The notes under the pieces: model-generated
The model's database searches: none
Told to the model about the DNA's origin: nothing
Seen by the model: only the letters and a program-made list of their open reading frames with translations
Source of the DNA: an uncultured bacterium
GTDB lineage: Bacteria > Patescibacteriota > Minisyncoccia > UBA6257 > 2-01-FULL-56-20
Direction: 5' to 3'
Length of the DNA: 48,809 nucleotides
Assembly: GCA_963844965.1 (NCBI GenBank)
Contig: CAWJQC010000001.1
Location: forward strand, 1-48,809
Translations under genes and position numbers: made by a program
Shown: piece after piece, positions 1 to 48,809 of the stretch
Layout of the letters: each line of letters starts with the position of its first letter
How positions within the stretch are numbered: position 1 is the first letter of the stretch

Positions 1-644
1 GTGAACTGCATCGTTCAGCTCTACGATCCTCAGAACGGCACGTCATACTATTCGCTTGCGAACGGCAGCAGCAGCGGTTCTATAACCGTTGGTGCGTCCA
101 CGTCCGCGACGTCCACTGCGACCAGTACATTCCCGGTAACCATCAACAGTTTGGCTGTCGCTACGACAACGGCGATTGCGAGCGGTACTACCGCAGCGGT
201 CATAGCTCGGACATCGCCGCCGCCATTAACGCGTCAACCACAGCTCTCGGCGTTACTGCGTCCGCATCAAACAACGTAATTACGTTGGCGCAAAATACGC
301 CGTCAACAAGCAACATCACCGTTACCGGTGGTGCAACGCTCGCTGGTCTGGCGATGACGTATGTGAACATCACTGGTGTTGCTGGAAGCTACCTGTCCTT
401 CAACCTTAACGGCTACACGGTCTCTGCCGGCACATCCAAGAGCTTCAACCTTCGTTTGAACTCAACCGGTGGTACTGTATCTGCTGGCAGCGGCGTCTCG
501 GTTACTTTAGCCGCGACGATCTCTTCCGCCAGCAACATCACCTGGACAGACGCCTTGGATAGCTCAGCTGCTTCTAACCTGAATATCCAGGCAAGCACTA
601 TTCCAGTGTCTATCCAGTCGGTTTCGTACGCGCAGGGAACGTAG
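1..644 (+). CDS. Ser/Thr-rich secreted/surface protein, C-terminal part (5' end outside window); ORFs 1..279 and 285..644 appear to be one gene joined by a frameshift near nt ~200 (frame of 285..644 stays open upstream to nt 3)
   Basis: Low-complexity S/T/A/G-rich translation typical of surface proteins; both reading frames open across the junction; followed by terminator. Confidence 0.4.
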   Translation, partial: ELHRSALRSSERHVILFACERQQQRFYNRWCVHVRDVHCDQYIPGNHQQFGCRYDNGDCERYYRSGHSSDIAAAINASTTALGVTASASNNVITLAQNTPSTSNITVTGGATLAGLAMTYVNITGVAGSYLSFNLNGYTVSAGTSKSFNLRLNSTGGTVSAGSGVSVTLAATISSASNITWTDALDSSAASNLNIQASTIPVSIQSVSYAQGT

Positions 645-691
645 TGATTGTCTGATCGCGAGCAAGTAACTTGAGATTATTTGCGAGCAGC

Positions 692-722
692 AAAACCCCC
701 GCCTTGCGCGGGGGCTTTGCGT
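692..722 (+). terminator. rho-independent terminator (CCCCCGC/GCGGGGG stem, then T-rich)
   Basis: AAAACCCCCGCCTTGCGCGGGGGCTTTGCGTTGC directly after the stop at 644. Confidence 0.6.
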
Positions 723-739
723 TGCTCGCCAACAATCCC

Positions 740-866
740 GTAATTCAATTGTAATTCGGTGGTAATAGTAATTAATAATTCAATGGTAATACGATTGTAA
801 TTCAGTGGTGATTCAATTCAGTGGTAATTCAGTTGTAATTCCATAGTAATTCAGTAGAATTGAGTA
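740..866. repeat. array of about 12 GTAATTC-type heptamers with 3-6 nt spacers, immediately upstream of the four-helix-bundle gene
   Basis: gtaattcaattgtaattcggtggtaat...gtaattcagtggtaattcagttgtaattcc read directly. Confidence 0.8.
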
Positions 867-1229
867 ATGAAACTCGACGATCTTGAAGTTTATAAACTGG
901 CCGGAGAAATTTCCGACGAGTCATGGTTGATTTACGAAAAGTTAAATTGGCGCGACAGGAAAATTATAGGAGATCAGTTTATCCGCGCCGTGGATTCTAT
1001 TGCCGCCAACATAGCTGAGGGCTTCGGCCGTTTTCATTACCTGGACAAAAATAAATTTAACTATAACGCACGCGGTTCGCTATTTGAATCAAAGCACTGG
1101 ACGAGTTCACTCTTTAAAAGGAATTTAATAACCAAGAAACAATTTGATTCCTTGGACCATAAACTTAATAATTTAGCCGTCAAACTAAACAACCTTATCG
1201 TTTCCACGCGGCGTCAATTGAGTAAATAA
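867..1229 (+). CDS. four-helix-bundle protein (TIGR02436-like; '23S rRNA intervening-sequence protein' family)
   Basis: 120 aa; motif IRAVDSIAANIAEGFGRFHYLDKNKFNYNARGSLFESKHW characteristic of this family. Confidence 0.75.
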   Translation: MKLDDLEVYKLAGEISDESWLIYEKLNWRDRKIIGDQFIRAVDSIAANIAEGFGRFHYLDKNKFNYNARGSLFESKHWTSSLFKRNLITKKQFDSLDHKLNNLAVKLNNLIVSTRRQLSK

Positions 1230-1292
1230 TTACCACAGAGTTACTATTACCATTGAATTACTACCGAATTACTACTGAATTACTTTATTACC
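1230..1292. repeat. inverse-orientation heptamer array (GAATTAC units), reverse complement of the 740-866 array
   Basis: ttaccattgaattactaccgaattactactgaattactttattacc; can pair with upstream array to form a long stem enclosing the ORF. Confidence 0.8.
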
Positions 1293-3623
1293 ATGTCCTC
1301 AAAGTCATTGCTTAGAATTATAAAAATTCTTATTTTCGTCGTTGTAATTGGAACGCCGTTTTTTTATGTAAAACAAACCGTTTTCCCCTTCACCATCTCC
1401 AAGATGGCTTTTTTTCAGTCGCTTGTGGAGTTTATATTTTTCCTTTGGCTTGCGCTCGTCCTCCCAAGTTTTGTCGGCAAAAATTTGGGAGGACGAGCGA
1501 TTTCCGACAAAAAATATCGCCCGCGCCGGACGCCGGCCCTTCTGGGTCTCGCGGCGTTTCTTGCCGTTTTGGTTTTCACGGCGGCTCTAGGCCTCGACCC
1601 TTGGCGCAGTTTCTGGTCAACATATGAGCGGACGTTCGGAGTTGTTACTTTTTTGCATTTAGGGGCACTGGCCCTTGTTCTTTCCGCGATTTGGTCGGAA
1701 ATTCCCTGGAAGAAACTTGCTTATTCTTCGATTGTGACCTGCGCGATCGTTGACATCATCGCCGCCTTGCAATTATGGAAGCCGGCCTTATTGCTCAATG
1801 AGGGTGCGATTAACAGAGCCGGCTCCACGTTTGATAATCCGTCGTTTCTGGCCGGTTACGTTTTGTTCCATGTTTTCCTTTGTCTCTATGTTCTATTTAC
1901 TTTGAAGAGAGGAGAGGATCTCCGAGCCGGTGGGCAGCGCTCGTCCAAGAATCTTTGGATAGGCATTGTTCTTTTTGTTATTCTCGTATTGAACGTCGTC
2001 ACCATTTTTATAACGCAGACGCGCGCAGCCATTTTGGCTTTGGTTGCCGGCTTTTTTGTTCTATTTTTGTTCTTTGCCTTTCGGCCGCCAGATAACGAAT
2101 GGCTGCCGGGTTTTTTGAAAAAAAAGTGGTTCTACGCCGCCGTCATCGCGGTCATCGTTTTGGGCGGCGCACTGTTTTGGTTCACGCGCGACAGCGCGGT
2201 TTGGGCGCAAGTTCCCGGACTCGGGAGATTCCGCAATATTTCCCTCACCGGCGGCGACACTTTGCCCAGAGTCATCGCCCTTAGCGCGGCTTGGCGCGGA
2301 TTTTTGGACAAGCCGTTCCTGGGTTGGGGATGGGAGAATTTCAATATTGTGTTCAATAAGTATTACGACCCGCGGTCTTTGGAGTTCAACTATGAAGAAA
2401 CGAGATTTGATAAGCCGCACAATTTTTTCATGGAATATTTGGTTGCCGGAGGCGTTCTCCTCGCGCTCGGATTTTTGGTTATGCTCGGCATTTTGATATA
2501 CGAGGCGCGGCGGCACAAAGAAAAACTTTTTTACCCGCTATTTTTGGCGGCGATTGTCGCCTACTTGGTCCAGAACCTGTTCCTTTTTGACACGCTCGGT
2601 CCGGCACTCATGTTTTTCGCGCTTTTCGGATACATGGACGGTTATTATGCCAAAAGCAGCGAGGAAAGGCCGGAAAAGGAAGCGCAAACACGGATACCGA
2701 CAAAGGTCAGCGGGCTTATGCTTGCGGTGTGCGCGCTTGTCGCTCTGGTTTTTGCGTATCAGTTTAATTTCCTGACCGTTGAGGCGTCTTATTATGAGTG
2801 GCGTGCTTTTAATGATTTTTTCGGAGGGAAACAGCAGAATGCCATAGAGGATTTCAAGACCACTTTGAGTATTTGGAGTCCGTATAGATGGAATTTCGGC
2901 AGGGATTTCGCCGCGAACGTTATAATGGCTTATTTTTACAATCAAGGCGCGGTGTCCGACAACGAGGCGCTTCTCGCTTTGAGCGCTATGGAAGAAGCGC
3001 GGGATGAGCATCCTCTTGATGCTTATAATCACTATGCGCTCGTTGACATGTACAATGAGGTTTCGGACATTGACATCGCAAAATACACGGCTTTAGCGGA
3101 GAAAGAAGCGGCAACGGCGCTCGCTTTGAGCCCGAACCGGCAGGAAGTTTATTTTTCTCTCGCGAAGACGAAACATATCGAGGGCGACGACAAGGCGGCA
3201 CTTGAACTCGCGAAGCGCGCCTTGGATTTGGACCCGAAGGTTCCCGACGCCCATTTCTACTACGGCGTGCTTCTGTTCTCGACTGGAGATCAAGCCGATG
3301 GCTATGCGGAAGTGAAGGAAGCGATCTCTTTGGGAAGAGAGTGGAAAAACTTTTACGAACCGAGAACGATTGCCGGATTTTTCGGCGATTTTGACCCTCC
3401 GAAACATTTGGATGAGGCTATAGACCTTTATAAAACGGCGCTTTCCATGCAACCTGACGATTTGGAAACGCAGATAAAACTCGGAGTTGCCTATTATTTC
3501 AAAAATGACTTTACCGACGCGCGCGATTACTTGAGTAAGGCGGCGACAAGATTCAACTTCAGAAGCAGTCCCGAGTTCGCCGAATTCAAGCCGATTCTGA
3601 ACCAGTTGGGAATAAATTATTAA
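1293..3623 (+). CDS. polytopic membrane protein, O-antigen ligase (Wzy_C)-like N-terminal domain plus C-terminal TPR repeats
   Basis: About 10 predicted TM helices, TQTRAAILALVAG ligase-like motif, C-terminal TPR-like helices (AYNHYALVDMYNE..., ALDLDPKVPDAHFYYGVLL...). Confidence 0.65.
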   Translation: MSSKSLLRIIKILIFVVVIGTPFFYVKQTVFPFTISKMAFFQSLVEFIFFLWLALVLPSFVGKNLGGRAISDKKYRPRRTPALLGLAAFLAVLVFTAALGLDPWRSFWSTYERTFGVVTFLHLGALALVLSAIWSEIPWKKLAYSSIVTCAIVDIIAALQLWKPALLLNEGAINRAGSTFDNPSFLAGYVLFHVFLCLYVLFTLKRGEDLRAGGQRSSKNLWIGIVLFVILVLNVVTIFITQTRAAILALVAGFFVLFLFFAFRPPDNEWLPGFLKKKWFYAAVIAVIVLGGALFWFTRDSAVWAQVPGLGRFRNISLTGGDTLPRVIALSAAWRGFLDKPFLGWGWENFNIVFNKYYDPRSLEFNYEETRFDKPHNFFMEYLVAGGVLLALGFLVMLGILIYEARRHKEKLFYPLFLAAIVAYLVQNLFLFDTLGPALMFFALFGYMDGYYAKSSEERPEKEAQTRIPTKVSGLMLAVCALVALVFAYQFNFLTVEASYYEWRAFNDFFGGKQQNAIEDFKTTLSIWSPYRWNFGRDFAANVIMAYFYNQGAVSDNEALLALSAMEEARDEHPLDAYNHYALVDMYNEVSDIDIAKYTALAEKEAATALALSPNRQEVYFSLAKTKHIEGDDKAALELAKRALDLDPKVPDAHFYYGVLLFSTGDQADGYAEVKEAISLGREWKNFYEPRTIAGFFGDFDPPKHLDEAIDLYKTALSMQPDDLETQIKLGVAYYFKNDFTDARDYLSKAATRFNFRSSPEFAEFKPILNQLGINY

Positions 3624-3781
3624 TCGATTAGCCGGCGGCTGATTGGGTGGTTTCGCCGGAGATTCCCGATTTTGCTATAATAAACATACTTGAAACCAAC
3701 AAAGGTCGACGCGACATAAAGCAAAGCGCGAAGCGCGAACGGCGGATCGATCCGCTTCACGATTTGCTGTAAGCAATTATT

Positions 3782-4057
3782 ATGACAAAAGCAGAATTAG
3801 TGGAGGCCGTGATGAAAGCGGCTGGCATTGAAACCAAGGTGGCCGCCGAGAGGTGCGTTGACACGGTTTTCGACACGATTGTGAAAACCATGAGCCGCGG
3901 CGAGGAAGTCGCCATAACGGGCTTCGGTACTTTTCGGGTTGCCAAGCTCGCCGCTCGCCAAGGAAGGAATCCAAAAACAGGCGAGACGATTCAGATCGCG
4001 GCTTCGGTAAAACCCAAATTCCGCGCCGGCAAGGTTCTGAAAGAAGCTGTTAAATAA
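3782..4057 (+). CDS. hup: HU family DNA-binding protein
   Basis: 91 aa, MTKAELVEAV...GFGTFRVAKLAARQGRNPKTGETIQI, a canonical HU/IHF fold sequence. Confidence 0.9.
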   Translation: MTKAELVEAVMKAAGIETKVAAERCVDTVFDTIVKTMSRGEEVAITGFGTFRVAKLAARQGRNPKTGETIQIAASVKPKFRAGKVLKEAVK

Positions 4058-21337: not shown

Positions 21338-23029
21338 ATGTCCAACGACGAACTGTTAAAACAAATACGAAAAGCGAAACTTTTGGACGAGGATGCGGTG
21401 GCCAAGCTCAGACGCGATTCGCTCCTGTCCGGCCAATCAGTTGAAAGTTTGATTTCCAATCGCCGGCTCATTGACGACGTGAAGCTCGCCACACTCAAGA
21501 GTTCGCTCCTCAACGTTCCTTATAAGAAAGTAAACGCTGGAGCTGTTGACAGCGGTCTTTTTGGGGTAATTTCCGAAGAGACGGCCAGAACTTACGGAGT
21601 CGCGCCGATTGAAGAGAGGGGAGACATGCTTGTCGTCGGGATGCTGCAGCCGGATGACGCCAAGGCGCAGGAAGCGCTCAAGTTCATTGGAGGGCAACAC
21701 CACCTGAACCTTGGGGTTTACTTGGTCTCTTACGGCGATTGGCAGGACGTTTTGAGGAGATACTCGCCCTATCGTTCGGAGGTTGAAAGAGCCGTAAGCT
21801 CTTTGAATTTGAAACCCGGAGGGAGCGGGCAGAAAATTGTCAGTCTTGACGAGGTCGGTGTCAGTGAAGACGCGCCGATTATAAAAATCGTAGCCGATAC
21901 TCTTAAGGAGGCCGTATCGGTGAGAGCTTCTGATATCCACGTTGAGCCCCAGGAAAATTATTTGCGTATCAGGTTCAGGGTTGACGGCAACCTGCGCGAG
22001 GAAGCGGCTCTTCCCGTTGAACTTTCCCAGCCAGTGGTCTCACGGATCAAGGTTATTTCCAGTTTGAAGATCGACGAGTCGCGAATTCCGCAGGACGGTC
22101 GTTTCCGGACGAAGGTTTTTGATAAATATATTGATTTCCGCGTTTCAACTTTTCCAACGCCGCTCGGTGAAAAAGTCGCAGTGCGCGTTTTGGATCCCGC
22201 GAGCGGCCTAAAGAGTTTTGAAGAGCTCGATCTTTTGTATGGCAATTTGGACAAGGTCAAAAAAGGTTTGGACAAGCCGTATGGCATGATCTTGGTCACC
22301 GGCCCAACTGGTTCCGGCAAAACAACGACGCTTTACGCTATGCTGCAGCTCTTGAACAAGGAAAATGTGAATATCGTGAGCTTGGAGGACCCGGTGGAAT
22401 ATTTTGTTTCCGGCGTCAACCAGTCTCAGGTACGTCCGGAGATAGGTTACGATTTCGCCTCGGGATTGCGGCAAATTTTGCGCCAGGATCCCGATACCAT
22501 CATGGTCGGCGAGATCAGAGACAACGAAACCGCGGGACTCGCGATACAATCAGCATTGACCGGCCACCTCGTCCTTTCCACCCTGCACACGAACAATTCG
22601 GCGGGCGTCATACCACGGCTCATAGATATGAAAGTTGAACCGTTCCTTTTGCCGGTTTCACTGAACCTTATGTTGTCGCAAAGGTTGGTGGGTTCGCTTT
22701 GCGAGAGTTGTAAAGCGGCGGAGACCGCGTCTCCGGATGTGGAAAAATTGATTAAGAGAGCTCTGGACGAACTGCCTCCGAACATCAGTTCAAAATACGG
22801 CTCGCCGTACAAAATTTTCCACAGCAAGGGCTGCCCAAAATGCAGGGGGCGGGGCGTTGTCGGCCGCACCGCGCTTTACGAAGTGTTGGAAATGACGCCC
22901 GGGCTTGAAGAGGTCATAATGAATGGGCCGACGGCACAAAAGGTTTTGAAGGAAGCGAAAAGCCAGGGGATGGTGAGCTCTGCGGCAGGACGGCGTTCTC
23001 AAAGCCCTGGACGGCAGAGTTTCAATTGA
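21338..23029 (+). CDS. pilB: type IV pilus assembly ATPase PilB (GspE family); true C-terminus DGVLKALDGRVSIEEVIRETEEI lies in the +1 frame ending at 23060, so there is an apparent 1-nt indel near 22976-22983
   Basis: N-terminal T2SE_Nter region, Walker A LVTGPTGSGKTTT, Walker B and Asp box (DPDTIMVGEIRD), His box (GHLVLSTLHTN), CxxC...CPKCRG zinc motif; start chosen at ATG 21338 (MSNDELLKQIRKAK). Confidence 0.85.
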   Translation: MSNDELLKQIRKAKLLDEDAVAKLRRDSLLSGQSVESLISNRRLIDDVKLATLKSSLLNVPYKKVNAGAVDSGLFGVISEETARTYGVAPIEERGDMLVVGMLQPDDAKAQEALKFIGGQHHLNLGVYLVSYGDWQDVLRRYSPYRSEVERAVSSLNLKPGGSGQKIVSLDEVGVSEDAPIIKIVADTLKEAVSVRASDIHVEPQENYLRIRFRVDGNLREEAALPVELSQPVVSRIKVISSLKIDESRIPQDGRFRTKVFDKYIDFRVSTFPTPLGEKVAVRVLDPASGLKSFEELDLLYGNLDKVKKGLDKPYGMILVTGPTGSGKTTTLYAMLQLLNKENVNIVSLEDPVEYFVSGVNQSQVRPEIGYDFASGLRQILRQDPDTIMVGEIRDNETAGLAIQSALTGHLVLSTLHTNNSAGVIPRLIDMKVEPFLLPVSLNLMLSQRLVGSLCESCKAAETASPDVEKLIKRALDELPPNISSKYGSPYKIFHSKGCPKCRGRGVVGRTALYEVLEMTPGLEEVIMNGPTAQKVLKEAKSQGMVSSAAGRRSQSPGRQSFN

Positions 23030-23107
23030 AGAAGTTATCAGGGAAACGGAAGAGATATAATATGGTAAAATTAAAAATGAAAGATTAAAAATAAAATTTT
23101 TTAATCT

Positions 23108-29990: not shown

Positions 29991-32385
29991 GTGAAACATA
30001 GAAATGTATGTGGCGCTATTGCCGTTTTTGTGTTGCTTATGACGGGTTGCGGTAGTGAAGGTGGTAATAATCTTCCGCCAGCAAATCCGTTGCCGACAAT
30101 TTCCGTTTCCGCGAATTCGGTTGGCTTTTCCGCCGTTCAGGGCGGAGCAAATCCCGCGGACCAGGAGTTGGCCATTTCTAACTCCGGCGCTTCGGGCTCC
30201 ACGCTGAGCTATTCTGTGTCCAAGACGCAGAATTGGCTTACGCTCGGCGGTTCTGCGAGCGGCAGTTCTTGCCTCCGGCGGGTCCGCGAGCGTTTCGCTG
30301 GACGTGAATATTTCCGGCCTCACGGTCGGAACCTACAACGATACATTGACGATTTCCGCTGCCGGCGCGACGAACACGCCGCAGACGGCCGCGGTAAAAC
30401 TTGTCGTAACACCGCCCACGATTGATTCAGTCACCATTTCGCCGACGAGCGTAACGCTTCCGGCTGGCGGCACGCAGCAGTTCACGGATAACGTCAAAGG
30501 AACCGGTAGTTTCAATCCTGCCGTGAATTGGACAACGTCTGCGGCCTGCGGCAAGATTTCGGATTCCGGCCTCTACACGGCCGCAATGAACGCCCAGGTA
30601 TGCGCGGTGACCGTTACCAGTCAAGCCGACAATACGAAATCGGCTTCGGCTATGGTGACGATAACTTCGCTGCCCCCGACCATATCGGTCGCGCCAGGCA
30701 CGTTCACATTCTCGTCCGTCCAGGGCGGAGCGAACCCTGCGAGCCAGACGCTTACCGTATCAAATTCCGGAGCCTCCGGTTCGGTTCTGACTTACTCGGT
30801 TTCTAAAACGCAGCCATGGCTTATACTCGGCGGCTCTGCGAGCGGCAGTCTTGCCGCCAGCGGGTCCGCGAACGTTTCGCTGGATGTGAATATTTCCGGC
30901 CTTACAGCCGGAACTTACACCGATACACTGACAATTTCCGCTGCCGGCGCGACGAACACGCCGCAAATCGTGACGGTAACGCTCACTATAGCCGTGCCGC
31001 CTGATCCGACGATTTCAATGCCGCCTACCGCGACGGTGCAATACGGTTCAACCTGGCAATTCGATATCACAGCCAACGGCACCCCGGCCTGTTCCGTAAC
31101 TTCTGGTCCCGGCTCGGTGTCGGTATCTGCGGACGGCACTGTTGCGACATATAGTGTGCCTTTGCCGGGCACGGCTGTGGCCGCGATCTCGGCTTGGTCG
31201 GCGGCGCTCATCTGCACCGTGACGAATTCTGTCGGCAAGACCGCGACCGCGACAGCAACCGTTGCGCTCCAATATGACACGCCGGTTATCTCCTCATTTT
31301 CCACGGTCGGCATTATGTGTCAGGCGGAGTGTCTGATAACCGTGGTCGTAACCGGCTCCGGATTCTACGTCGGCGGCACGCTTTACGAGGATTCAACGCC
31401 CATGTCGCTTGTGAGCGCGAGCACGAACGTAACCGGCCAACCCAACATGCTTCCGATATCGGAGAACGACAGGGTCGCATTCATAATGATTTTTGACACG
31501 CCGCATTACGACCCACACCGGATAAAGTTTTCGGCCGCGAGTCCTAACGACGGGCACGGCGGCGGAACTTCAAATACCGTTTATCTGGGATTCTACGGCA
31601 ACCAGAATACGGTAGCTTTAAGCATTGGCAACCAGAACACGACAGCTCCCACCCCGGCGGAAGTTTTCCAAGCCTATCAGGCTCAATCGGTAATCTACAA
31701 ATTTCTCCTAAGTGATGGAACAAGCGACGGTAATTTCCTACAAGCTGCTCACGGAATATCGGTGGACGACAAAAGCGGAAATCTATTGCTTACCCCGCCG
31801 TGGGGCATAATGGAAATAGCACCCAGCGGGCAGCAAGTCGGCGGGGCGTGGATAAATCTCTATTCCATAGCCGTGGCGGCGAAAGGCGGGTATGGATGCG
31901 CAGCGCAGCCATATGACGGTTCGCTGACCTCACTTGATCTGTCGCAGTTGCCGCGTTTGAGTCCCGTTATCATGGCTATCGGAAACGAGCCGTGGAATGT
32001 GGCGATGACGAAACTCGGCGGCGAGTTTGCCTGCGTCGCGTTCAATGCCGGCGACTTGCAGCTCTCCGTCGTTAAAGTTCCAGAAACGCAACTTTGGAAT
32101 TTCACGACGCTTGTCGGTTTGACGCCGCTCGGTGATCTGCAGTCGCCTCCGGACGGCGGTTGGCAACTCGCTGTTTTTGACGTCAGCACGACCGTCAAGA
32201 TTATCGCCGTCCTGTCACAGCACGACAAGTTGGTTGTCTTCAAGCAGTTGCAGTTGGACGAAAATACCGGACTTGTCGCGATTAACGATCTTGCTCAAAC
32301 CCCGATCAGCTGGGTTATAAATTCGGATCAGCAGCTAACTGGCGCGCCGGTATTGCTCGGGATTCCGTTCAGGATCGCGTTTTGA
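29991..32385 (+). CDS. lipoprotein with BACON-like / Big_2 / BACON-like N-terminal modules and large C-terminal domain; interrupted by a 1-nt insertion at about 30266 (ORFs 29991..30425 and 30304..32385 are one gene)
   Basis: Lipobox LLMTGC; GTG start with GGGAGG RBS; the second tandem module (30700-31000) is a near-identical DNA copy of the first but has GGCAGTCTTGCC where the first has GGCAGTTCTTGCC. Confidence 0.55.
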
Positions 32386-32609
32386 TCCCGAACGGGATGC
32401 TAATCGTGGCGGTTGATGACTATCTGGCCGGTGTCACAAGGTTTGGCTCCGTTAATCCCACGACCGGAGTTATGACACAACTCACGGCGACGACCCCGAA
32501 ATTGACGGTAGGATTAGCGGTAAGTCCGCTTGACGGCCGTATCATCGGCTGCGAGCGCGACGCCTGCGACTTCATGCTGGAGCAGTGATGTTGAGATGCG
32601 ATTTTTCGC

Positions 32610-33035: not shown

Positions 33036-33518
33036 ATGGCGAAGCTTTCAAAGTCAACGGGAGTTTTCGCGCTCGTGATACTGCTTTTGGCCGCGGTCAT
33101 TGCCGTCATCGTTTTCGTCGCGCTTCGCGGGAAGGCGCCAGCTCCCGCCGCTATGCCCGTAGGGAAACCCACTGCGCAGCCTTTGCCTGCATACGCGCCG
33201 CCGGGCGAGCTCACACCCGGTTTTCCCAAAGAACTGATTCTCGGCGGCGAGGCGACGTCCAGCGGAAGTTATGCGATAAATTACGGCAGCGGCCCGAGTT
33301 TGCGCACAGCATCGTTCGGTTCGGCGAAGTCAATGCTTTCGCTTTTCAATCTCTACAAAACGTACTTCAGGAGCAACGGCTGGACCGTGGTCAACGAAAT
33401 TACCAAATACCAGAATTCGCGCGGTCTTTATGCAGTGAAAAGCGGCGCCGTTTCCAGCGTTTCTATTATTGATAACGGAAAAACGCGCGAGGTCGTCGTG
33501 AGCTATTCGGGGAAATGA
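33036..33518 (+). CDS. secreted/anchored hypothetical protein
   Basis: Signal anchor VFALVILLLAAVIAVIVFVAL; 160 aa. Confidence 0.5.
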   Translation: MAKLSKSTGVFALVILLLAAVIAVIVFVALRGKAPAPAAMPVGKPTAQPLPAYAPPGELTPGFPKELILGGEATSSGSYAINYGSGPSLRTASFGSAKSMLSLFNLYKTYFRSNGWTVVNEITKYQNSRGLYAVKSGAVSSVSIIDNGKTREVVVSYSGK

Positions 33519-34390
33519 AAGTTTTTAAAAAAATAATTCTTTACACAGCGCTGCTCGCTTTTGCTGTCAGCGTTGTTTTCAATGTTCCGCGGGAGTTTTC
33601 TCATGCTCAAACATCGCCACAGGTGCGTGTCGTATTCGGCCGTGTTGACCAGTATGGCAACATCCTTGGCGGGAGCCATCTTCCTAAAACTCCTTCAAAA
33701 TACGATTTTTCCGTTAGTCATGGGTCGACCGGTAGTTATTCAATCAGTTTTGACAGCAGCGATTTTTCCAATACTCCCGCCCTTGTGGTTAATCCAGCGA
33801 GCGCCAGCCACCCGGCGGATATTGATTCCGTGGGAAGATTTTCGGCATTTTTTCACATAGGAAGAGTCGGCGCTGGCAATCAGGACGATTATTTCTCGTT
33901 TATTGCCGTGGGTCTTTCGTCTAACCCGAGGAACGACCTTGCGTACGCATTCGGCAGCTTCATGAGCTCCTATGGGGTGGGGGCGTCTAACGCAGGAAGC
34001 GGAAATTGGACTTCATCACCTGGCACTGGCAGCTACAGCGTCTCCTTCAAAGCTGGCGTATTTAGTTCTCCGCCCACGGTGGTGGCAATGGGTCCGGGTG
34101 CTGTTGATTGTGTCTCGGGGGTTTCCCAGAGTCCAACCTTGGCGTATCTTTACGAGGAAAGTGGAAACTGTGAAACTGGTGTTCCGAGAACTGATTATAC
34201 TGGACAAGGTATGTCGTTTATCGCGGTCGGGGAAAACGCGGCGCAACCCGACCTCGTGAACATTTCGGAAGGAACTTTTGGTTATGATGGGACTATTGGC
34301 GCCGGCAGTACCGGCGACCTTCAATATGTTTATGGCAGTTTAGCGGCAATAATAGTCTGTATTTTCTTATCACCAACATGGCGTTTGTGA
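33515..34390 (+). CDS. secreted hypothetical protein
   Basis: Signal peptide IILYTALLAFAVSVVFNV; 291 aa; 4-nt overlap with upstream gene. Confidence 0.5.
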   Translation: MKVFKKIILYTALLAFAVSVVFNVPREFSHAQTSPQVRVVFGRVDQYGNILGGSHLPKTPSKYDFSVSHGSTGSYSISFDSSDFSNTPALVVNPASASHPADIDSVGRFSAFFHIGRVGAGNQDDYFSFIAVGLSSNPRNDLAYAFGSFMSSYGVGASNAGSGNWTSSPGTGSYSVSFKAGVFSSPPTVVAMGPGAVDCVSGVSQSPTLAYLYEESGNCETGVPRTDYTGQGMSFIAVGENAAQPDLVNISEGTFGYDGTIGAGSTGDLQYVYGSLAAIIVCIFLSPTWRL

Positions 34391-35115
34391 ATAATTCGCC
34401 GGTGTTGGTGGGAACTCCAATTTATGTTAACGGGCGCGTCTGCGGGGGCTATACCTACACGAGCGGGGGCGGCGGGTCAGCTACTATCGCCGGTGATCCA
34501 GATCATACATGCGACACCAGAAGCGGATCAACCAAGGCGGGACTCACGATGATTGCCATCGCGCCCGTACTTCCTACTGTTAATATTTATCCCGATGCCG
34601 CTTCCGTTCCTTTGAATAAGGCCACGAATATCCATTGGAGTTCCGAATATACCACCGATTGCTCAATAACGATCATGGCCAACGGCGTGACCACGCCGAG
34701 CGGCTGGACAGTAAACCCGAACGTTGATGGTTCTCACACGACCGGAAATTTAACTTGGCCAACGACTTATACAATAAACTGCGACGGCAGTTTCGGCGGC
34801 AAAGTGACCATGTCGGCCACCGTGAGTATTGACCCGCCAGATATGAACCTGCAAGCCAATCCCACTTCTATTGATGTGTGTGCTTCTCCGATCATTGCCT
34901 GCGGCGGTGATCCCAACACTTGCGGACGCTCAGTTGTAAGTTGGGGTCCGATTATAAATGTCACAAGTTCCAGTAATTGTAAACTTTCCGGAAATTGGTC
35001 CGGTACGTTGTCGTCGCCCGATATTTCACTTTCACCAGGCGGTGTTCTGTCTCCGTCATATTACCCTTCCGGTATCTCTCAGCTTGACGGGTGTTACCTC
35101 AACAAGAACGTATAA
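34378..35115 (+). CDS. Cys-containing Ig-like repeat protein; probably the N-terminal part of the giant gene below (frame switch needed near 35050-35115)
   Basis: Contains the same TYTINC..G..G..TV.V domain signature as the downstream gene; the domain continues across the stop codon in another frame. Confidence 0.45.
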   Translation: MAFVNNSPVLVGTPIYVNGRVCGGYTYTSGGGGSATIAGDPDHTCDTRSGSTKAGLTMIAIAPVLPTVNIYPDAASVPLNKATNIHWSSEYTTDCSITIMANGVTTPSGWTVNPNVDGSHTTGNLTWPTTYTINCDGSFGGKVTMSATVSIDPPDMNLQANPTSIDVCASPIIACGGDPNTCGRSVVSWGPIINVTSSSNCKLSGNWSGTLSSPDISLSPGGVLSPSYYPSGISQLDGCYLNKNV

Positions 35116-38100
35116 TATGACCTGCTACGGCCCTGGCGGGAGTTTTTCCGAAACTGCCACCGTGACCATTAATCCCGCGACAGTGGGGCTTACTCCCAAC
35201 CCTGGGTCCGTTGATTTGTATAAAACATCCGTAATAAATTGGGGCATAACTAACGTTACGACTCTTAACTCCTGTGCTCTAGGGGACGCTTGGGGAAGCA
35301 GTTCTCCTCCGCCTCTTCACCCATCGTCTTGCTCCGGTAATTATACGACTCCGTCATTGGTTGCGCCCACGACCTATTCCATCGGGAGCTGCACCGGGCC
35401 TGGAGGAAAACAGAATCCCGATCCCGAATCTGTGACGGTCGGCATAAATGACCCGAATATAAACATGGCTGCTGTTCCGGCCCAGCTCCACCTTAGTGAG
35501 TTAAGCGGCGGCTCGGTTATAAAATGGGGCAGGGACGCGGTTGGCACAAATAGTCCCAGTGATGACATCGGTAATGTCACAAGCACGGCTAATTGCACGC
35601 TTTCCGCCATTCCGCCTGCGAGCGGCTGGTCCGGCACGCTCTCGGCTTTCCACGGCACCTACGCGACGGGACCGCTATCATCAAGCAATCTTACATACAC
35701 ATATAATATAACCTGCAAGGGAGCGGGACAGAACGGGGGAACTACCACCGGGAAAGCTATAGTGTCCGTCGCTCCGCCCGAAGTTTCCATCAATGCGAGT
35801 TCTACTACGATCAGTCCCGGTTCTTCCACGGTAATAACTTGGAACTCTACGGATACCACCGCCTGCGTGGAGTCGTGGGTGAACAGCACGACAGGTAATC
35901 CTAACTGGGCCAACAGTCTGTCTAACAGCGTAGGGACAAACACCGGCCCTCTCACGGACAACACGACGTATTCAATAAGTTGCACTGGCGCCGCCGGCGC
36001 AACCGCGCAAGATTCCGTTACGGTGAGCATGAATACCGGCGCGCCGACCATTACTGAATTCAAGGCCACGCCGCCCGCCGTGTCGCCCGGCGACTCCACC
36101 ACAATAACCTGGAGTTCCACCAACGCCACCAATTGCAATGTGTCGTCCACCACAGACGGCGTAAACTGGACGGCCGTTGGGAGCGGTACCTCCAACACCA
36201 CAGGGGTTTCAAGCGGCCCGCTTACGAAAGATACGACTTATGAAATCACTTGTCACGGTCCCGGCGGAGATACACAGCGGTCAATCACGGTCAGGGTTGG
36301 GAATTTCATATGCCCGGATATGGGTGCGATCAACGTAAGTTCCACGAATTCCTGGGCGGACAATGACCATCCGAACAATTTATTGCCCGGTGATTACGTT
36401 ACAAGTTCGTGGCAATTTACGCCTCCCTCATCGGTTGACCCCTGCGATCAGGGTTGCGCGAATTTGTCCCATAACGGATACACGAATCTTCCGGCGAGCG
36501 CGGCGGCTCCGGCAGATTGCCCGTATACACTTATCCCCGTTCAGGGCAGCGCCGGACCGCTCTATGCCTTGAAAAAAGTTGATACGAAACTTGCCGCCAT
36601 AGGAGAAGGCGATCTTGGCTTGAGCTGGCTCAAGAACTCGTTGCTCAATATTGCCAAAGCATTTGTTGTTTGGCCGGGCACATCCACTTCTTCTTACACC
36701 CAGGGTCTCAGTCCGTCCGCTTATTACGATGACTGGCTTGTTTTCTCGGATCCCGCCAAAACCAACTCCAGCCACATCAACTTCAGTGTGGGCACTGGTT
36801 CTTCTACCGCTCTTACGATCAACGGCACCACGATTGGCAGTTTCACCGTCGGCCAGAAATGGACGCTGGACATAACAAGCAACATGCCGAAAACAAATTT
36901 CAGTTTCTGCGTCAACTCTAACTCCAGCTGTAACCCCTATACCACGGATGCGAACGGCAACTGGACCCTAAGCGGCGATTTTCCGCTTTCCACTGTCGGT
37001 TCCTGGAGCGAGTGGGCGGTGTTCCCGGGCGGCGTCAATTCCGATACCATCAGTTTCACCGTGGGCGCCGCTCCCTTTGCCGCTCTTATGGTCAATACCA
37101 CAACTATCAACGCCTTTGGTTTCGGCCAGACCATAACCTACGCGCTCGCCTCAAACATTCCTAAGACGAGCTTTGAAGTGTGCTATAAGCTTGATGGCGT
37201 GGCGCAGCCGTGCGTCAACTCAAGTTTTACGGACCCGAATTATCAGACGGACCCGAGCGGCAATTGGAGCACGCAGCAGACGCAAGACTTATCTACTACT
37301 GGTGCCGCCGGCCATTCTTACGAGGACTGGTTTGTCTTCCGGGATTCCGACCAGACCAATTCCAGCCACGTCAATTTCATCGTGAGCCCCGGCACTCTCG
37401 CGATCAACGGCGTTACTGCTGGTAGTTTTACGGTGGGCCAAGCATGGACACTGAACGTAACGAGCAGTATGCCGAACACTAGTTTCACCATTGAATGCAG
37501 CATGGATAGCGGTGCGCCATTTGCCTGCGATAGCGGCACCACTGACCCGAACGGCAACTGGACCACTCTAGGCGGCGATACCTTTCCCGCTTCCGTCGCT
37601 GGTTCTTGGGAAGAGTGGGTAGTCTTCTCAAACGGCGCCAGCTCTACCCATATTAACTTCAAAGTGAGCCAGGGTCCTACCGCTGCTCTCACGATCAACG
37701 GCGTTACGACCGGCAGTTTTACCGTCGGCCAGAAATGGACGCTGAACATAGCAAGCAATATGCCGAGCACCAATTTCAGCTTCTGCGTCAACTCCGGTTC
37801 TAACTGCAGACCATACACCACTGACCCGAACGGTAACTGGAGTCTGAGCGGCACTTTCAATTCCGATTCCATCGGTTCCTGGAGCGAGTGGGCGGTGTTC
37901 CCGGGTGGCCCCAATTCCAATTCTATCAGTTTTACTGTGGGCGCCGCTCCATTTGCCGCTCTCACGATTAACGGCGCTACGTCTGGTAATTTCGGCGCAA
38001 ACCAGGCGTGGATTCTGAACATAGCAAGCAATATGCCGAGCACCAATTTCAGCTTCTGCGTCAACTCCGGTTCTAACTGCAGACCATACACCACTGACCC

Positions 38101-39430
38101 GAACGGCAACTGGAGTCTGAGCGGCACTTTCAATTCCGATTCCATCGGTTCCTGGAGCGAGTGGGCAATATTCTCAAATTCCGCCCAAACCTATTCCAAT
38201 CTCATCAATTTCAGCGTGGCCTCTATTTCCCCGGCCACTCTCACGATCAACGGCGCCGCTGCCGGCACTTCCGGCGTCGGCCAGACCGTAACATACACGC
38301 TTGTTTCGGGTGTACCCAGCGCGAGCTTTAAAGTGTGCTATGACTACAATGGCGTAACGCAGCCCTGTTTGACCGATCCAAAATATTTCACAGATGCATA
38401 CGGTAATTGGAGTACGAAGCAAACTTTAACCCCCAATACTGCCGGCTCGGCCGCTCTTTTCAATATTGAATGGGACCCGCTCGCGGAGATAACTGTGACC
38501 TCTACTTCGCCGATTCCTCCGCCTTCCTGTCCGGACGGTCAGATTTGCTTTAACGAGACAAGTACGGCGGAAGGAACGGTCGCGGTATCAAATAATGGTG
38601 CCGACCATTCGCAACTTGATTGGTCCGTAAGCGACCAATCTTCCGCCAATTTCCCCAGTTGGCTTACGGTTTCGCCGTTGTCTTCCACCTCCACTGGCTC
38701 CACCGGACCGATTAACAAGGATGGCCAGCCGCAGACCGTGAATGTTGATTGTGATACCAGTTCCGTTCCGTTCGGTACACAAACTTCAACTGTGCTCGTT
38801 TTCTCGGGTATGACGCACGGTATTCCTGGCCAACAAGCCGCCGATTCTCCCCGAACCGTCACCGTTAACCTTTCTCTTGCGATACCTCCTGTTACGATAA
38901 ATCCGGCTAACGCGACTACCACCGTTTATACACCCGTCGCATTCACGGTCGCCGGGGGCATGGGCACCTCGTATTCCTGTTCCGTTTCCGGTCCGGCGTA
39001 CGTGAGCTGCGCGGTCCTCGGCGAAAACATTCCTTTCAATATCAGTTTCCCGGCTGTTGGAACTTATACCATCACGGTTACCGATACCGACCCCACGAAC
39101 ACGACGGGCGACAATACTGCTACCGCTTCCGTTGTTGTTGCGGTGGTGCCCGCGAGTTGCGATTTCTCCGCATCGGCTGGCGGCTTATCAACCAACTGCA
39201 TTCTCTTATCGGCATCCACGACCCTCTCCTGGTCGTGCGAGTATGTTGATCCCGTCAAGGGTTGCACGCTTAACGGCTCGGCCGTTGCATCTAGCGGGAG
39301 CCGTATAGTATTCCCGACGTCCACGACGGTTTACACGCTCCATTGCGCCGGAGCAGGAGGCGGCCAGGACGCGATAGTTCCACTGCAGGTTTGCGTGAGA
39401 ACGCAGAGTTGGAAAGAAATTCCGCCATAA
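34958..39430 (+). CDS. giant secreted adhesin-like protein built from about 100-aa Ig-like repeats (TY.I.C.G.GG....TV.V; ..NC.VS.) and a second repeat family (..ING.T.G.F.VGQ.WTL....MP.T.F.....S..C.PYTTD.NGNW..SG.F....GSWSEW.VF). Start uncertain: ATG 35117, or fused with 34378..35115
   Basis: Repeats read in translation; near-identical DNA tandem copies 37737-37900 / 38017-38180. Confidence 0.6.
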   Translation: MSQVPVIVNFPEIGPVRCRRPIFHFHQAVFCLRHITLPVSLSLTGVTSTRTYNMTCYGPGGSFSETATVTINPATVGLTPNPGSVDLYKTSVINWGITNVTTLNSCALGDAWGSSSPPPLHPSSCSGNYTTPSLVAPTTYSIGSCTGPGGKQNPDPESVTVGINDPNINMAAVPAQLHLSELSGGSVIKWGRDAVGTNSPSDDIGNVTSTANCTLSAIPPASGWSGTLSAFHGTYATGPLSSSNLTYTYNITCKGAGQNGGTTTGKAIVSVAPPEVSINASSTTISPGSSTVITWNSTDTTACVESWVNSTTGNPNWANSLSNSVGTNTGPLTDNTTYSISCTGAAGATAQDSVTVSMNTGAPTITEFKATPPAVSPGDSTTITWSSTNATNCNVSSTTDGVNWTAVGSGTSNTTGVSSGPLTKDTTYEITCHGPGGDTQRSITVRVGNFICPDMGAINVSSTNSWADNDHPNNLLPGDYVTSSWQFTPPSSVDPCDQGCANLSHNGYTNLPASAAAPADCPYTLIPVQGSAGPLYALKKVDTKLAAIGEGDLGLSWLKNSLLNIAKAFVVWPGTSTSSYTQGLSPSAYYDDWLVFSDPAKTNSSHINFSVGTGSSTALTINGTTIGSFTVGQKWTLDITSNMPKTNFSFCVNSNSSCNPYTTDANGNWTLSGDFPLSTVGSWSEWAVFPGGVNSDTISFTVGAAPFAALMVNTTTINAFGFGQTITYALASNIPKTSFEVCYKLDGVAQPCVNSSFTDPNYQTDPSGNWSTQQTQDLSTTGAAGHSYEDWFVFRDSDQTNSSHVNFIVSPGTLAINGVTAGSFTVGQAWTLNVTSSMPNTSFTIECSMDSGAPFACDSGTTDPNGNWTTLGGDTFPASVAGSWEEWVVFSNGASSTHINFKVSQGPTAALTINGVTTGSFTVGQKWTLNIASNMPSTNFSFCVNSGSNCRPYTTDPNGNWSLSGTFNSDSIGSWSEWAVFPGGPNSNSISFTVGAAPFAALTINGATSGNFGANQAWILNIASNMPSTNFSFCVNSGSNCRPYTTDPNGNWSLSGTFNSDSIGSWSEWAIFSNSAQTYSNLINFSVASISPATLTINGAAAGTSGVGQTVTYTLVSGVPSASFKVCYDYNGVTQPCLTDPKYFTDAYGNWSTKQTLTPNTAGSAALFNIEWDPLAEITVTSTSPIPPPSCPDGQICFNETSTAEGTVAVSNNGADHSQLDWSVSDQSSANFPSWLTVSPLSSTSTGSTGPINKDGQPQTVNVDCDTSSVPFGTQTSTVLVFSGMTHGIPGQQAADSPRTVTVNLSLAIPPVTINPANATTTVYTPVAFTVAGGMGTSYSCSVSGPAYVSCAVLGENIPFNISFPAVGTYTITVTDTDPTNTTGDNTATASVVVAVVPASCDFSASAGGLSTNCILLSASTTLSWSCEYVDPVKGCTLNGSAVASSGSRIVFPTSTTVYTLHCAGAGGGQDAIVPLQVCVRTQSWKEIPP

Positions 39431-39542: not shown

Positions 39543-42997
<3,455 letters not shown>

Positions 42998-43966: not shown

Positions 43967-44012
43967 GCCCAATCTGCGGCGGTATCTGCCGTCAGTTGGG
44001 CTTTTGTTTGTC
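43967..44012 (-). terminator. terminator hairpin (GCCCAA-CTGCGGC..GCCGTCAG-TTGGGC) flanked by A6/T-rich runs; the stop codon of the 43992 gene lies in its 3' arm
   Basis: aaaaaagcccaatctgcggcggtatctgccgtcagttgggcttttgtttg. Confidence 0.45.
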
Positions 44013-44614
44013 GCGTTTGCCGTCAAGCAATATCGTCAAGGTTGGAGCTCTGTAAGGAAGCGAAGCTTCTACGGCCTTGAAGTAGTCAATGGGGTTGATC
44101 CTTGAAAGAAAAACTTCCCTTCTTTTGTCCGCGGTGACCGGCCTTATTTCCGCGTTCGTTTTTATCATTGCCGCGTATTCTTTTTGATGTTTGGACATTA
44201 TTTCGCACATGTCTTGATTTCGCACATGTCTTGATAATATTCGGCGCAACTTGGGCACTCCTCCAGATGTTCCCTGAGAGGGTCGAGAAGTTCCGGTTCT
44301 ATTTCCGTTTTGAAGCGCTGGATTGCTTTATTCGCATAACCGACCCTCTCAATCTCCATATTGCGTATCAGAGTGAGGAGGGCGTAACTGAACATCTCCC
44401 GTTGCGGGCAATCTTCGTAGCACAGACGCGAGGTAAGAAAGTAGGTTTTGCGTTTCGCGAGAAGGTAAGAAAGCCAAAATAAACAACCCCCGCATTTTCT
44501 GGCGTGTTTTACGAGGTCGGCGTCAACCGGCCTCGTCAGATTGACGGCACGGAGCACCTTAGCCAACTGCGTGCATTCCGATTTTCGCGGCCTTGCCTTT
44601 TGTGTTTTTCGCAC
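43992..44614 (-). pseudogene. zinc-finger-motif protein (..LREHLEECPSCAEYYQDMCEI..) split into ORFs 44198..44614 and 43992..44258 by a perfect 17-bp tandem duplication
   Basis: Removing one copy of TTTCGCACATGTCTTGA restores a single 202-aa ORF; both ORFs encode QDMCEI from the two copies. Confidence 0.5.
44201..44234. repeat. perfect 17-bp tandem duplication (TTTCGCACATGTCTTGA x2)
   Basis: Read directly. Confidence 0.9.
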
Positions 44615-44830: not shown

Positions 44831-44874
44831 CCCCGCACCAAATTTATAAAATTATGAGATTTCGAGCGGTTCGC

Positions 44875-44949
44875 GCGGCCGTGGTGTAGCCTGGTTAACA
44901 CGTCCCCCTGTCACGGGGAATATCACGGGTTCAAATCCCGTCGGCCGCG
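44875..44949 (+). tRNA. tRNA-Asp (anticodon GUC); flanking sequence extends the acceptor helix to about 17 bp (AGCGGTTCGCGCGGCCG / CGGCCGCGCGAACCGCT)
   Basis: GCGGCCG-TG-GTGT-AGCCTGGTTA-ACAC-G-TCCCC-CTGTCAC-GGGGA-ATAT-CACGG-GTTCAAAT-CCGTG-CGGCCGC-G. Confidence 0.85.
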
Positions 44950-45024
44950 CGAACCGCTGGAACGCCTTCGTTTCAAATATTCGATTTCAGCAATAGCACT
45001 AAATGTAAAAATTTGGTGCGGGTT

Positions 45025-45062
45025 ACGGGGAAGGTTGTGGGTTCAAATCCCATCGCCCGCGC
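45025..45062 (+). other. degenerate tRNA-Asp 3'-half fragment (TACGGGGAAGGTTGTGGGTTCAAATCCCATCGCCCGCGC)
   Basis: About 80% identical to the 3' half of the intact tRNA-Asp. Confidence 0.4.
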
Positions 45063-45089
45063 AAAGACAAAGACAAGGTGGGGGATAAA

Positions 45090-45122
45090 GGGAAGATCAC
45101 GGGTTCAAATCCCGTCGGCCGC
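45090..45122 (+). other. exact 29-nt copy of the tRNA-Asp 3' end (ATCACGGGTTCAAATCCCGTCGGCCGCGC), candidate att-site remnant; an inverted 14-nt copy (GACGGGATTTGAAC) lies at 45179-45192
   Basis: Direct repeat of tRNA positions about 47-75, read directly. Confidence 0.5.
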
Positions 45123-45129
45123 GCTAAAA

Positions 45130-45164
45130 CCAAAAGACGATGACCTTGTGCCATCGTCTTTTGG
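45130..45164. other. perfect 13-bp stem-loop (CCAAAAGACGATG-accttgtgc-CATCGTCTTTTGG)
   Basis: Read directly; possible terminator of the tRNA cluster transcript. Confidence 0.4.
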
Positions 45165-45890: not shown

Positions 45891-45937
45891 GCCACCCCGC
45901 ACCAAGCCCGACTCGTTTTACATAAGGCAGAATCAAA

Positions 45938-45965
45938 CCCCCACCTTTTCGGAAAAAGGTGGGGG
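45938..45965. repeat. 28-bp perfect palindrome CCCCCACCTTTTCGGAAAAAGGTGGGGG between convergent genes
   Basis: Read directly; family recurs at 47423-47596 and 48272-48345. Confidence 0.7.
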
Positions 45966-45988
45966 TTGAGTTTGCCTATCTGCCTGTC

Positions 45989-46957: not shown

Positions 46958-47422
46958 AGTTTTAATTCAATTATTGTTTTGCCGACCTTTCAACTTCTAT
47001 TGTAGAAGTTGTTCCATTGATAGACACTATATCAGCCCCAATTTTTTTGCAATAGGGCGCGGACGCGAAAGCGCGCGCGCAAGCGGGCGGGCATTCTTGC
47101 GGGTGAATAATAAAAATAGGGAAACAACGCGCATTGTCTTTGGTTTCCTCGCGTCGTTTCCCCGAGACAGGAGGATAAACTAACTCAAAGTAATTATACT
47201 ATACTGTAGAGAGGCGGAAAATAGCAATAGGCGGCTTGCGGGCAAGAAAGCCGGGAAGTAGGGGAGGTAATCACAGGGAAACGAAACCCTTTGCGGGATT
47301 TCACTGATTACCGCCCCTGCTTCGGGCCTTCGGGTTGCCGCTACTTATCCCCACACTTTCCACAGGAGGATATTAACCCCGCGGGAAGGTGTGGGGATTT
47401 ATTACCACGAAGCCAGCCGCAA

Positions 47423-47596
47423 GTCAACCCCCACCTTTTCGGGAAAAAGACGGGGGTCAACCCCCGCCTTTTCGGAAAAAGACGGGGGTCAACCCCCGCC
47501 TTTTCGGAAAAAGATGGGGGTCAACCCCCGCCTTTTCGGAAAAAGATGGGGGATTGACCCGCCTTTTCGCGCATCGCGCAAAAGGCGGGGGTTGAC
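47423..47596. repeat. tandem array of about 4.5 copies of a 31-32-bp unit (GTCAACCCCCGCCTTTTCGGAAAAAGACGGGG), each a pair of small hairpins; terminal variant with CGCGCATCGCGC loop; no spacers
   Basis: Read directly; ORFs 47291..47609 are translations of the repeat. Confidence 0.75.
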
Positions 47597-47655: not shown

Positions 47656-47986
47656 ATGAAATATAAGAACACGCTCCAAAAAGGGTCCGCGCGCTTCATC
47701 GTTTTTCGCGAGGGGGATACGTGGTACTGCGTTTGTCTGGAATTCAATATTGTTGAATCGGGAAGCACCCCCTCAGGAGGCGCTGCTTCTTTTGGTAGAA
47801 GCGGTGGAAGGGTATTTAGAATCGGCTCGGAAGATAAAAGCCAGACCCGGTATTTTGAACCAGAAATCAGACCCCGAGTACGAAGAATTATGGGATGCCG
47901 CCGAAGAACATAAAAAGGTTCCGGCAAAGGAAATTTTTTCTTTTGGCAGATTGAATCTTGCCGGAAGAACCTTTGCCGCCGCATAA
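47656..47986 (+). CDS. hicB: HicB-like antitoxin, frameshifted at a C5 homopolymer (47771-47775): ORFs 47656..47913 and 47750..47986
   Basis: N-part ARFIVFREGDTWYCVCLEFNIVESG, C-part in the other frame QEALLLLVEAVEGYLESARK. Confidence 0.45.
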
Positions 47987-48002
47987 CAAATCGAAACTCC
48001 GT

Positions 48003-48236
48003 ATGCCAAGAGGTCTGTACAACTGGACGGCGGAGGATGTCGTCCGTTTTCTCAAAGAAAAAGGATTTGTATTGAACTATACTAAGGGAAGTCATTATTT
48101 CTATATCGGGAGATACGGCGGAGCGTTTCGCCAAGTATGCGTGCCTTTTCATGGCAGCCGAGTGATCAAACCGCGGACACTCAAAGGTATGATTCGCCAA
48201 TCCGGCATTCTGAAAAGTGAGTGGCTGGCAGGGTGA
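48003..48236 (+). CDS. hicA: HicA-like toxin (YcfA family). ORF track starts at 47958
   Basis: WTAEDVVRFLKEKGFVLNYTKGSHYFY..GAFRQVCVPFHGSRVIKPRTLKGMIRQSGI. Confidence 0.6.
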   Translation: MPRGLYNWTAEDVVRFLKEKGFVLNYTKGSHYFYIGRYGGAFRQVCVPFHGSRVIKPRTLKGMIRQSGILKSEWLAG

Positions 48237-48271
48237 TTGGGCGCGAACGCTAATCCGACCGACACGAAATC

Positions 48272-48345
48272 GACCCCCACCTTTTCGGAAAAAGGTGGGG
48301 GTGAACCCCCACCTTTTCGCGCATCGCCCAAAAGGTGGGGGTTGT
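48272..48345. repeat. two further palindromes of the GGGGG/CCCCC family (CCCCCACCTTTTCGGAAAAAGGTGGGGG and CCCCCACCTTTTCGCGCATCGCCCAAAAGGTGGGGG)
   Basis: Read directly, immediately 3' of the second hicA. Confidence 0.7.
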
Positions 48346-48546
48346 GTTTCCGGGGCCAAATATTCGGTTATACACCGTCCCCGCAAATTCACGCTATTCG
48401 CGGAGCTATAATGTAAACGTAGCTGCGCAAAGGTCGAAAGCTTAATCATTAAAACATGGAGAAAAAAACAACAGACCAGCCGGCAGGGCCCGAGCAGGTC
48501 AATTGACGGGGGAGAGGGCGCCTACCGCGCGTTTGAGGAACGGAAG

Positions 48547-48809
48547 ATGGAGCTGCAGAGGTCAAAAAATATGTGGCGAAATTTGTTTCTTGTGAACATC
48601 GTCCTCCTTCTTTGCGTGGCGTTTTTCGCGTTTTTGGGGCTGGCCGCGAACATCGGAGTTACCACGGTACTGTGGCTTGAGTTTGCCCCGGCTCTGCCGC
48701 TTGTGTACTCCGCGATTTCATTCACGCCCAGCACAGCAGAGACCGGAATATCTGGAAGAGTACTCGTTCAAGTCGGTTGTGGCGCGGTCACTCAATTCGT
48801 ACCGGATAT
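48547..48809 (+). CDS. partial CDS (3' end outside window): membrane protein N-terminus MELQRSKNMWRNLFLVNIVLLLCVAFFAFLGLAANIGVTTVLWLEF...
   Basis: Open frame from ATG 48547 to window end, two hydrophobic helices; not in the supplied ORF track (no stop). Confidence 0.3.
   Translation, partial: MELQRSKNMWRNLFLVNIVLLLCVAFFAFLGLAANIGVTTVLWLEFAPALPLVYSAISFTPSTAETGISGRVLVQVGCGAVTQFVPD

Follow-up and report, generated by a model that had tools for sequence, protein, structure and literature searches.

Residual consensus indels in long-read assemblies and nascent bacterial pseudogenes are both well-known phenomena. In nanopore-only assemblies, residual consensus indels fragment gene calls; R10.4 resolves homopolymers to ~10 nt, and bins below 40x still need polishing with short reads (PMC9262707). 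Here, we examined the reading frames of a complete 48,809-bp contig from an uncultured, Paceibacteria-like member of the Patescibacteria (~43 genes; the whole contig is referred to below as the window), in which small insertions or deletions disrupt seven genes, including the pilus ATPase gene pilB, a giant adhesin gene and the antitoxin gene hicB-2. The disruptions are probably of two kinds, namely eight single-base errors in the consensus sequence and one real 17-bp duplication.

The window resembles long-read-only (nanopore or PacBio continuous long read) assemblies, whose consensus indels split open reading frames (ORFs) as seen in the IDEEL test, in having single-base indels only, at ~1 per 5 kb, and in the 16% of its genes that are truncated when compared with their best homologues. 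The frames downstream of the events are intact, and an independent assembly of the same run differs by an indel, which are further points of likeness. It differs in its 17-bp duplication, which is no error, and in that its events avoid long homopolymers, unlike R9-era errors. With the nascent pseudogenes of decaying or host-restricted bacterial genomes the window shares intact orthologues, a preference for accessory and surface genes and a real duplication. In contrast to such genomes, however, it shows neither nonsense mutations nor insertion sequence insertions or deletions, it lacks secondary decay and run-length bias, and its relatives within the clade are intact. Programmed +1 frameshifting of the prfB type and phase variation at contingency loci likewise require a frame change, and several of the targets here are surface proteins; the window differs in that its sites are not conserved and have neither a slippery or stimulator motif nor long repeat tracts.

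Nine frame disruptions in seven genes

The first-pass annotation of the window, made from the sequence letters, had named seven genes that need a frame switch to give the expected protein. Each of these sites was checked against homologues or internal paralogues, and the proteins of L083 (GCA_040960625.1), a syntenic 23-kb contig that spans pilB to genes past ligA, were also compared by blastx. Further relatives, L084-L086, are Hainich groundwater assemblies that cover the first ~8 kb of the window. All seven genes were indeed disrupted relative to homologues or internal copies. The blastx comparison with the L083 proteins revealed two additional events, at ~32380 in the BACON lipoprotein gene and at ~34340 in the adhesin gene. 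The earlier count, which had missed these second events, was too low: nine events (five +1, three -1 and one +17) are spread over seven of the ~43 genes (16%), at a density of ~1 per 4.6 kb of coding DNA. The disrupted genes are listed below.

1..644, + strand: 3' part of a gene for an S/T-rich surface protein, truncated at the contig start; -1, frame 1 to frame 3 at 204-207, GTCATAGC^TCGGAC
21338..23060, + strand: pilB, type IV pilus assembly ATPase; extra base at 22978-22980, frame 2 to frame 3
29991..32588, + strand: BACON/Big_2 lipoprotein gene; +1 at 30266-30267 (frame 3 to 1) and -1 at ~32377-32385 (frame 1 to 3)
33515..39430, + strand: giant repeat adhesin, one gene; -1 at ~34336-34347 (frame 2 to 1) and +1 at 35064-35087
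39543..40860, + strand: Laminin_G_3 (LamG) protein gene; extra base at 40655-40657, frame 3 to frame 1
43992..44614, - strand: Cys-rich (zf-HC2-like) protein gene; exact 17-bp tandem duplication, copies 44201-44217 and 44218-44234
47656..47986, + strand: hicB-2 antitoxin gene, upstream of hicA-2; extra base at 47771-47776, frame 1 to frame 2

Each event interrupts a protein that relatives encode in one piece. The closest non-self PilB among 5.8 billion proteins was 85% identical, and the DNA ligase reached at most 72% protein identity to metagenome-assembled genomes (MAGs) of Patescibacteria/Paceibacteria-type lineages; there is therefore no same-species genome to compare. A comparison with a related genome, as the first-pass annotation had proposed, could be made with L083, in which the orthologues are without any breaks: PilB (573 aa), the BACON lipoprotein (846 aa), the adhesin (1247 aa), the LamG protein (336 aa) and the Cys-rich proteins are all continuous. 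Relatives are also intact at the S/T-rich site (L084) and at the hicB-2 site (161 HicB homologues).

As written, pilB encodes a truncated protein of 563 aa (P0001) in which the final 28 residues are replaced. The fused PilB has 573 aa, which is the modal length among 120 homologues of 570-611 aa (mostly 572-577 aa), and the Pfam T2SSE domain is matched over its full extent (4-370/370) across the junction. Alignment with the L083 DNA (AGCT[C]TG versus AGCT-TG) places the extra base at a site without a homopolymer. The pil operon is otherwise 65-94% identical to that of the relative.

The BACON lipoprotein is written as three pieces in the window. At its first break, the gene can be compared with its own tandem repeat: where copy 1 has GCAGTTCTTGCC, copy 2 has GCAGTCTTGCC, and the distance between the repeats shortens from 583 to 582 at 30266/30267, which bears out the earlier description of this site as TT versus T relative to the tandem copy. 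The second event adjoins a T4 run at 32380-32383. After both corrections, the protein has 865 aa and is covered to 100% by the unbroken orthologue P0123 (846 aa), whose residues 3-92, 93-776 and 756-846 were matched by blastx in frames 3, 1 and 3, respectively.

The adhesin is distributed over three ORFs (33515-34390, 34378-35115 and 34958-39430) that together form a single 1970-aa protein. The 1247-aa orthologue in L083 aligned in frame 2 (33548-34318), frame 1 (34393-35064) and again frame 2 (35087-39427). The first event is near a T3 run at 34339-34341. For the break that had been proposed near 35050-35115, the evidence is twofold: the orthologue aligns across the site, and an Ig-like repeat unit is split there, its N-terminal half lying at 34930-35016 in frame 1 and its C-terminal half at 35084-35176 in frame 2.

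In the LamG gene, Pfam Laminin_G_3 was matched in two stretches, and residues 266 and 268 of the orthologue flank the break. The DNA alignment with L083 (GATCCTC versus GA-CCTT) locates the event at 40655-40657. The first-pass annotation had correctly recognised a frame break in this gene but had assigned it to a C4 run near 40636, ~20 nt upstream of the actual site at GAT-C-CTC. The gene also contains an in-frame insert of ~103 codons (40347-40655) without counterpart in the L083 orthologue, and the frame change comes directly after this insert, within LamG's own sequence. The insert matches a single repeat unit of the adjacent adhesin (E 1e-20, 44% identity) and looks like the product of domain shuffling between neighbouring surface-protein genes.

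The extra base in hicB-2 lies in a C5 run (47771-47775) or is the T that follows it. All 161 HicB homologues cross the junction in a single alignment, the top ones over 1-102 in one stretch. The closest homologue, P0242, reads ...EFNIVEEGSTPQEA..., in which GSTPQEA is the same as in the corrected window. The adjacent hicA-2 is intact (Pfam HicA_toxin, 1.1e-12). Two metagenomic hicB-2 homologues, P0314 and P0267, are also frame-shifted, a few codons from the TP(Q/E)EA region. This region could be a fragile site of the HicB family; a frameshift hot spot in the family, considered since both homologues are split mid-gene, was set aside as probably a detection bias.

At the S/T-rich site, P0392 (277 aa) matched nt 13-207 in frame 1 and nt 204-641 in frame 3, and the two matches are contiguous at its residue 131. 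P0393-P0395 hold both the VQLYDxxNGTSY motif, which is in frame 1 of the window, and the C-terminal domain, which is in frame 3. The window starts in this gene, and the three independent Hainich assemblies L084-L086 end in the same gene (at their position 2), all within ~200 nt or less of each other. This shared break points to a repetitive or hypervariable stretch immediately upstream.

In the region 645-21271, the genes with orthologues in L081, L082 or L084 showed no extra frame change, and the others are long unbroken ORFs. A candidate frameshift at 10658-10710 (- strand) was dismissed, as the 425-aa gene has a normal end. A codon-usage frame plot gave a signal too weak to place frame changes at ~50% GC. 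The contig ends were also examined for a clue to the assembler, and the 3' end was unique sequence and uninformative.

The 17-bp duplication in an independent assembly

The duplication in the Cys-rich gene is the sole tandem repeat that Tandem Repeats Finder reported at the event sites (period 17, 2.1 copies, 100%). The de-duplicated protein fits its orthologues through the conserved C-terminus (..[RK]PN*). We compared the window with Logan, in which public runs are assembled independently from k-mers. Four window proteins were found in it, all in run ERR10755942, and the corresponding contigs aligned to the window as follows.

Window 3420-5566: Logan contig L088, 100% identical (2147 nt)
Window 5580-7087: Logan contig L087, one substitution at 6701 (window C, Logan A)
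Window 32613-33678: Logan contig L090, 100% identical (1066 nt)
Window 43882-44890: Logan contig L089, one gap in 1008 nt, at 44825

L089 holds the identical 17-bp duplication, and the truncated product (P0403) is present too. The reads thus contain the duplication, which is a genuine mutation in the sequenced DNA rather than an artefact of the assembler. The first-pass annotation had counted it among the likely errors; the duplication is present and breaks the frame as described, but its reproduction in run ERR10755942 contradicts the error assignment. That annotation had also said that reads backing the written sequence would mean real pseudogenisation, and such backing was found for the 17-bp duplication only, via L089.

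Overall, the Logan contigs and the window differ by 1 indel and 1 single-nucleotide polymorphism in the 5.7 kb compared. The indel at 44825 is non-coding (CCCCC[T]GCTTG in the window, without that T in L089), and its rate of 1 in 5.7 kb is of the same order as the frameshift density. The differences at 6701 and 44825 may represent microdiversity or, alternatively, noise in the consensus. Single events can be confirmed or questioned with an independent k-mer assembly of this kind.

Origin of the single-base events

In all seven genes, the frame once restored continues without a stop to the C-terminus usual for the family. The open stretches that follow the breaks extend for ~700 codons after the first BACON event and ~1450 codons after the second adhesin event, without secondary decay. 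No nonsense mutation was found in the seven genes in comparison with their orthologues. If 50-70% of natural small inactivating mutations are assumed to be frameshifts, the probability of nine indels and zero nonsense mutations is 0.002-0.04. Since the frames are open, nonsense mutations are absent and the relatives are unbroken, the events must be either extremely recent or non-biological. We propose that the eight single-base indels are most likely stochastic errors of the consensus, left by read noise in an assembly of low coverage from an indel-prone platform; the ninth event, the duplication, is a genuine mutation. We infer both the technical origin of the single-base events and the long-read platform.

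Several features favour consensus errors. An antitoxin beside an intact HicA and pilB in a conserved operon are among the genes hit, and their real loss would be costly. Disruption of 16% of genes would be very unusual in a streamlined genome. Two assemblies with shared read data also differ already by one indel in 5.7 kb. Replication slippage favours long runs, and the run-length independence of the events suits random read noise better than such slippage. In addition, the record is an unannotated ENA/NCBI MAG contig, and related ENA MAG sets include nanopore-only assemblies made with Flye and one round of Medaka (PMC12313526). The earlier judgement of indel errors rather than pseudogenes is thus the likelier one for the single-base events, given that there are only indels, no decay, intact relatives and hits in the antitoxin and pilB, although it does not extend to the duplication. 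On the same four observations, treating any pseudogene call as provisional is the more likely reading. As a matter of annotation hygiene, the seven genes, including pilB, the adhesin and the BACON lipoprotein, should not be recorded as pseudogenes or fragments without a check of the reads. Unless reads support all of the sites, there is no new biology here, and the case is an ordinary matter of sequence quality.

The errors proposed here are of a different kind from those first suggested. The first-pass annotation had placed several of the events at homopolymers and had taken this as the classic signature of assembly error. The description holds only weakly: at the eight single-base sites, the longest runs nearby measure 2, 1, 2, 4, 3, 3, 2 and 5 nt, and none of the 55 coding runs of 6-8 nt breaks the frame. 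A uniform per-base model was not rejected (P = 0.10 for at least two of the eight events in runs of 4 nt or longer), whereas a model in which the rate rises fourfold with each extra base was (P = 0.0024 for none of the eight in runs of 6 nt or longer), so that the signature does not serve as an argument for error. An inserted base equals its neighbour by chance in ~44% of cases, and descriptions of the type 'TT versus T' therefore weigh little. Run-length changes are possible at the first BACON site (T to TT) and in hicB-2 (C4 to C5, or an added T), and LamG is ambiguous (T or C in GATCC), against the ~44% expected by chance. The events are not run-length miscalls of long homopolymers, and the case shows that a frameshift at a short homopolymer alone is no evidence of homopolymer error. 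Classic homopolymer-length miscalling, of the type seen with 454, Ion Torrent or nanopore R9, could point to the C5 run in hicB-2, to the T4 and T3 runs beside the second BACON and first adhesin events, and to the first BACON event and possibly LamG, which can be written as changes from 1 to 2 in run length. We nevertheless consider it very unlikely, as the pilB site has no run, the LamG event is off the C4 run, and Logan and the window agree at each long run compared, in addition to the statistics above. Another reading is programmed ribosomal frameshifting (+1/-1), transcriptional slippage or phase variation of surface genes. In its favour, four of the +1 sites can be written as NNY-[T/C]-CTN, with an extra pyrimidine before a CUN Leu codon; AGGGGA is found ~10 nt upstream of the pilB site, and most of the targets are surface proteins. 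The shift sites are not conserved, however: L083, L084, 120 PilB homologues and ~150 HicB homologues read straight through, and as the relatives are without shifts, programmed frameshifting is excluded. Neither a slippery motif shared above chance nor a consistent stimulator was seen, and the directions are mixed (+1, -1 and +17). Candidate shared +1 motifs (YYCT, with an extra pyrimidine before CTN; GGCAGTT at two sites; GATC/AGCT contexts) were rejected, as none went beyond chance by a hand estimate. Phase-variable loci typically have a repeat tract of ~7 nt or more, whereas no long tract is present here and runs at the sites reach 5 nt at most. Together, these observations make recoding or phase variation extremely unlikely.

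A further explanation is that all nine events are genuine and very recent, either fixed or segregating, and represent nascent pseudogenes of surface, pilus and accessory genes. We regard this as possible but unlikely, and the observations that favour it are largely those that also weigh against consensus errors. The duplication, confirmed in the read-derived Logan assembly, shows that the population carries at least one fresh disruption. Most events are in variable surface proteins or a mobile-element-like region, where loss would be tolerable and real decay is also plausible. The events are unevenly spread, with only one of the nine in the first 18.3 kb of coding DNA, and cluster in the contig's second half (p=0.045). 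The Logan contigs equal the window exactly over kilobases (100% over 2147 + 1066 nt, including homopolymers of 6-7 nt), showing that the reads are fairly accurate, and the retrieved contigs cover none of the eight single-base sites. The break of the window and of the Hainich short-read contigs in the same S/T-rich gene is a hint of short-read assembly; if the reads are Illumina reads, single-base consensus indels would be unexpected and the events would then be real. Against nine genuine events stand the indels without a single nonsense mutation (p=0.002-0.04), the intact codons downstream even though two genes are hit twice, the lack of the run-length bias expected of natural slippage, the broken antitoxin beside an intact toxin, the broken pilB in a conserved operon, and the absence of the breaks from relatives. 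Fresh disruption of 16% of genes would moreover be extraordinary for a streamlined genome of ~1 Mb. An improbable form of genuine origin would be a burst of indel-only, run-length-independent inactivation in a free-living Patescibacteria population, affecting the pilus ATPase, adhesins and an antitoxin, for example through error-prone end-joining or gap-filling repair that leaves +/-1 scars and short tandem duplications. Consensus errors at the eight single-base sites, together with one real duplication, thus remain the explanation that we favour.

Other features of the window

Two stretches are without a credible ORF, at 4058-4424 (~370 nt) and 43486-43991 (~500 nt), the second of which is rich in inverted repeats; neither had an Rfam match at E<=0.1. 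Between its pil genes, the window has recurrent AATTTCT 7-mers (19481-19510 and 20848-20963).

The tRNA-Asp gene (44875-44950) lies amid partial copies of itself, consisting of a 5' part (44745-44830) and two 3' parts (45015-45076 and 45077-45138), which are likely integration scars. Two hicAB pairs are located downstream of this tRNA gene. GC-rich palindromic hairpin repeats of ~32 nt (CCCCCGCCTTTTCGGAAAAAGACGGGGG) are found at 45937-45972, 47421-47594 and 48267-48344 and include a 4-copy tandem array. These repeats flank the hicAB genes and resemble REP or terminator elements.

Near the start of the window, a 23S_rRNA_IVP / four-helix-bundle gene (867-1229) lies between inverted arrays of an 11-nt repeat, at 731-863 and 1229-1284. 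Its orthologue in L084 is similarly placed between inverted arrays of another short repeat (AATTTCTAATT), at 904-938 and 1340-1385.

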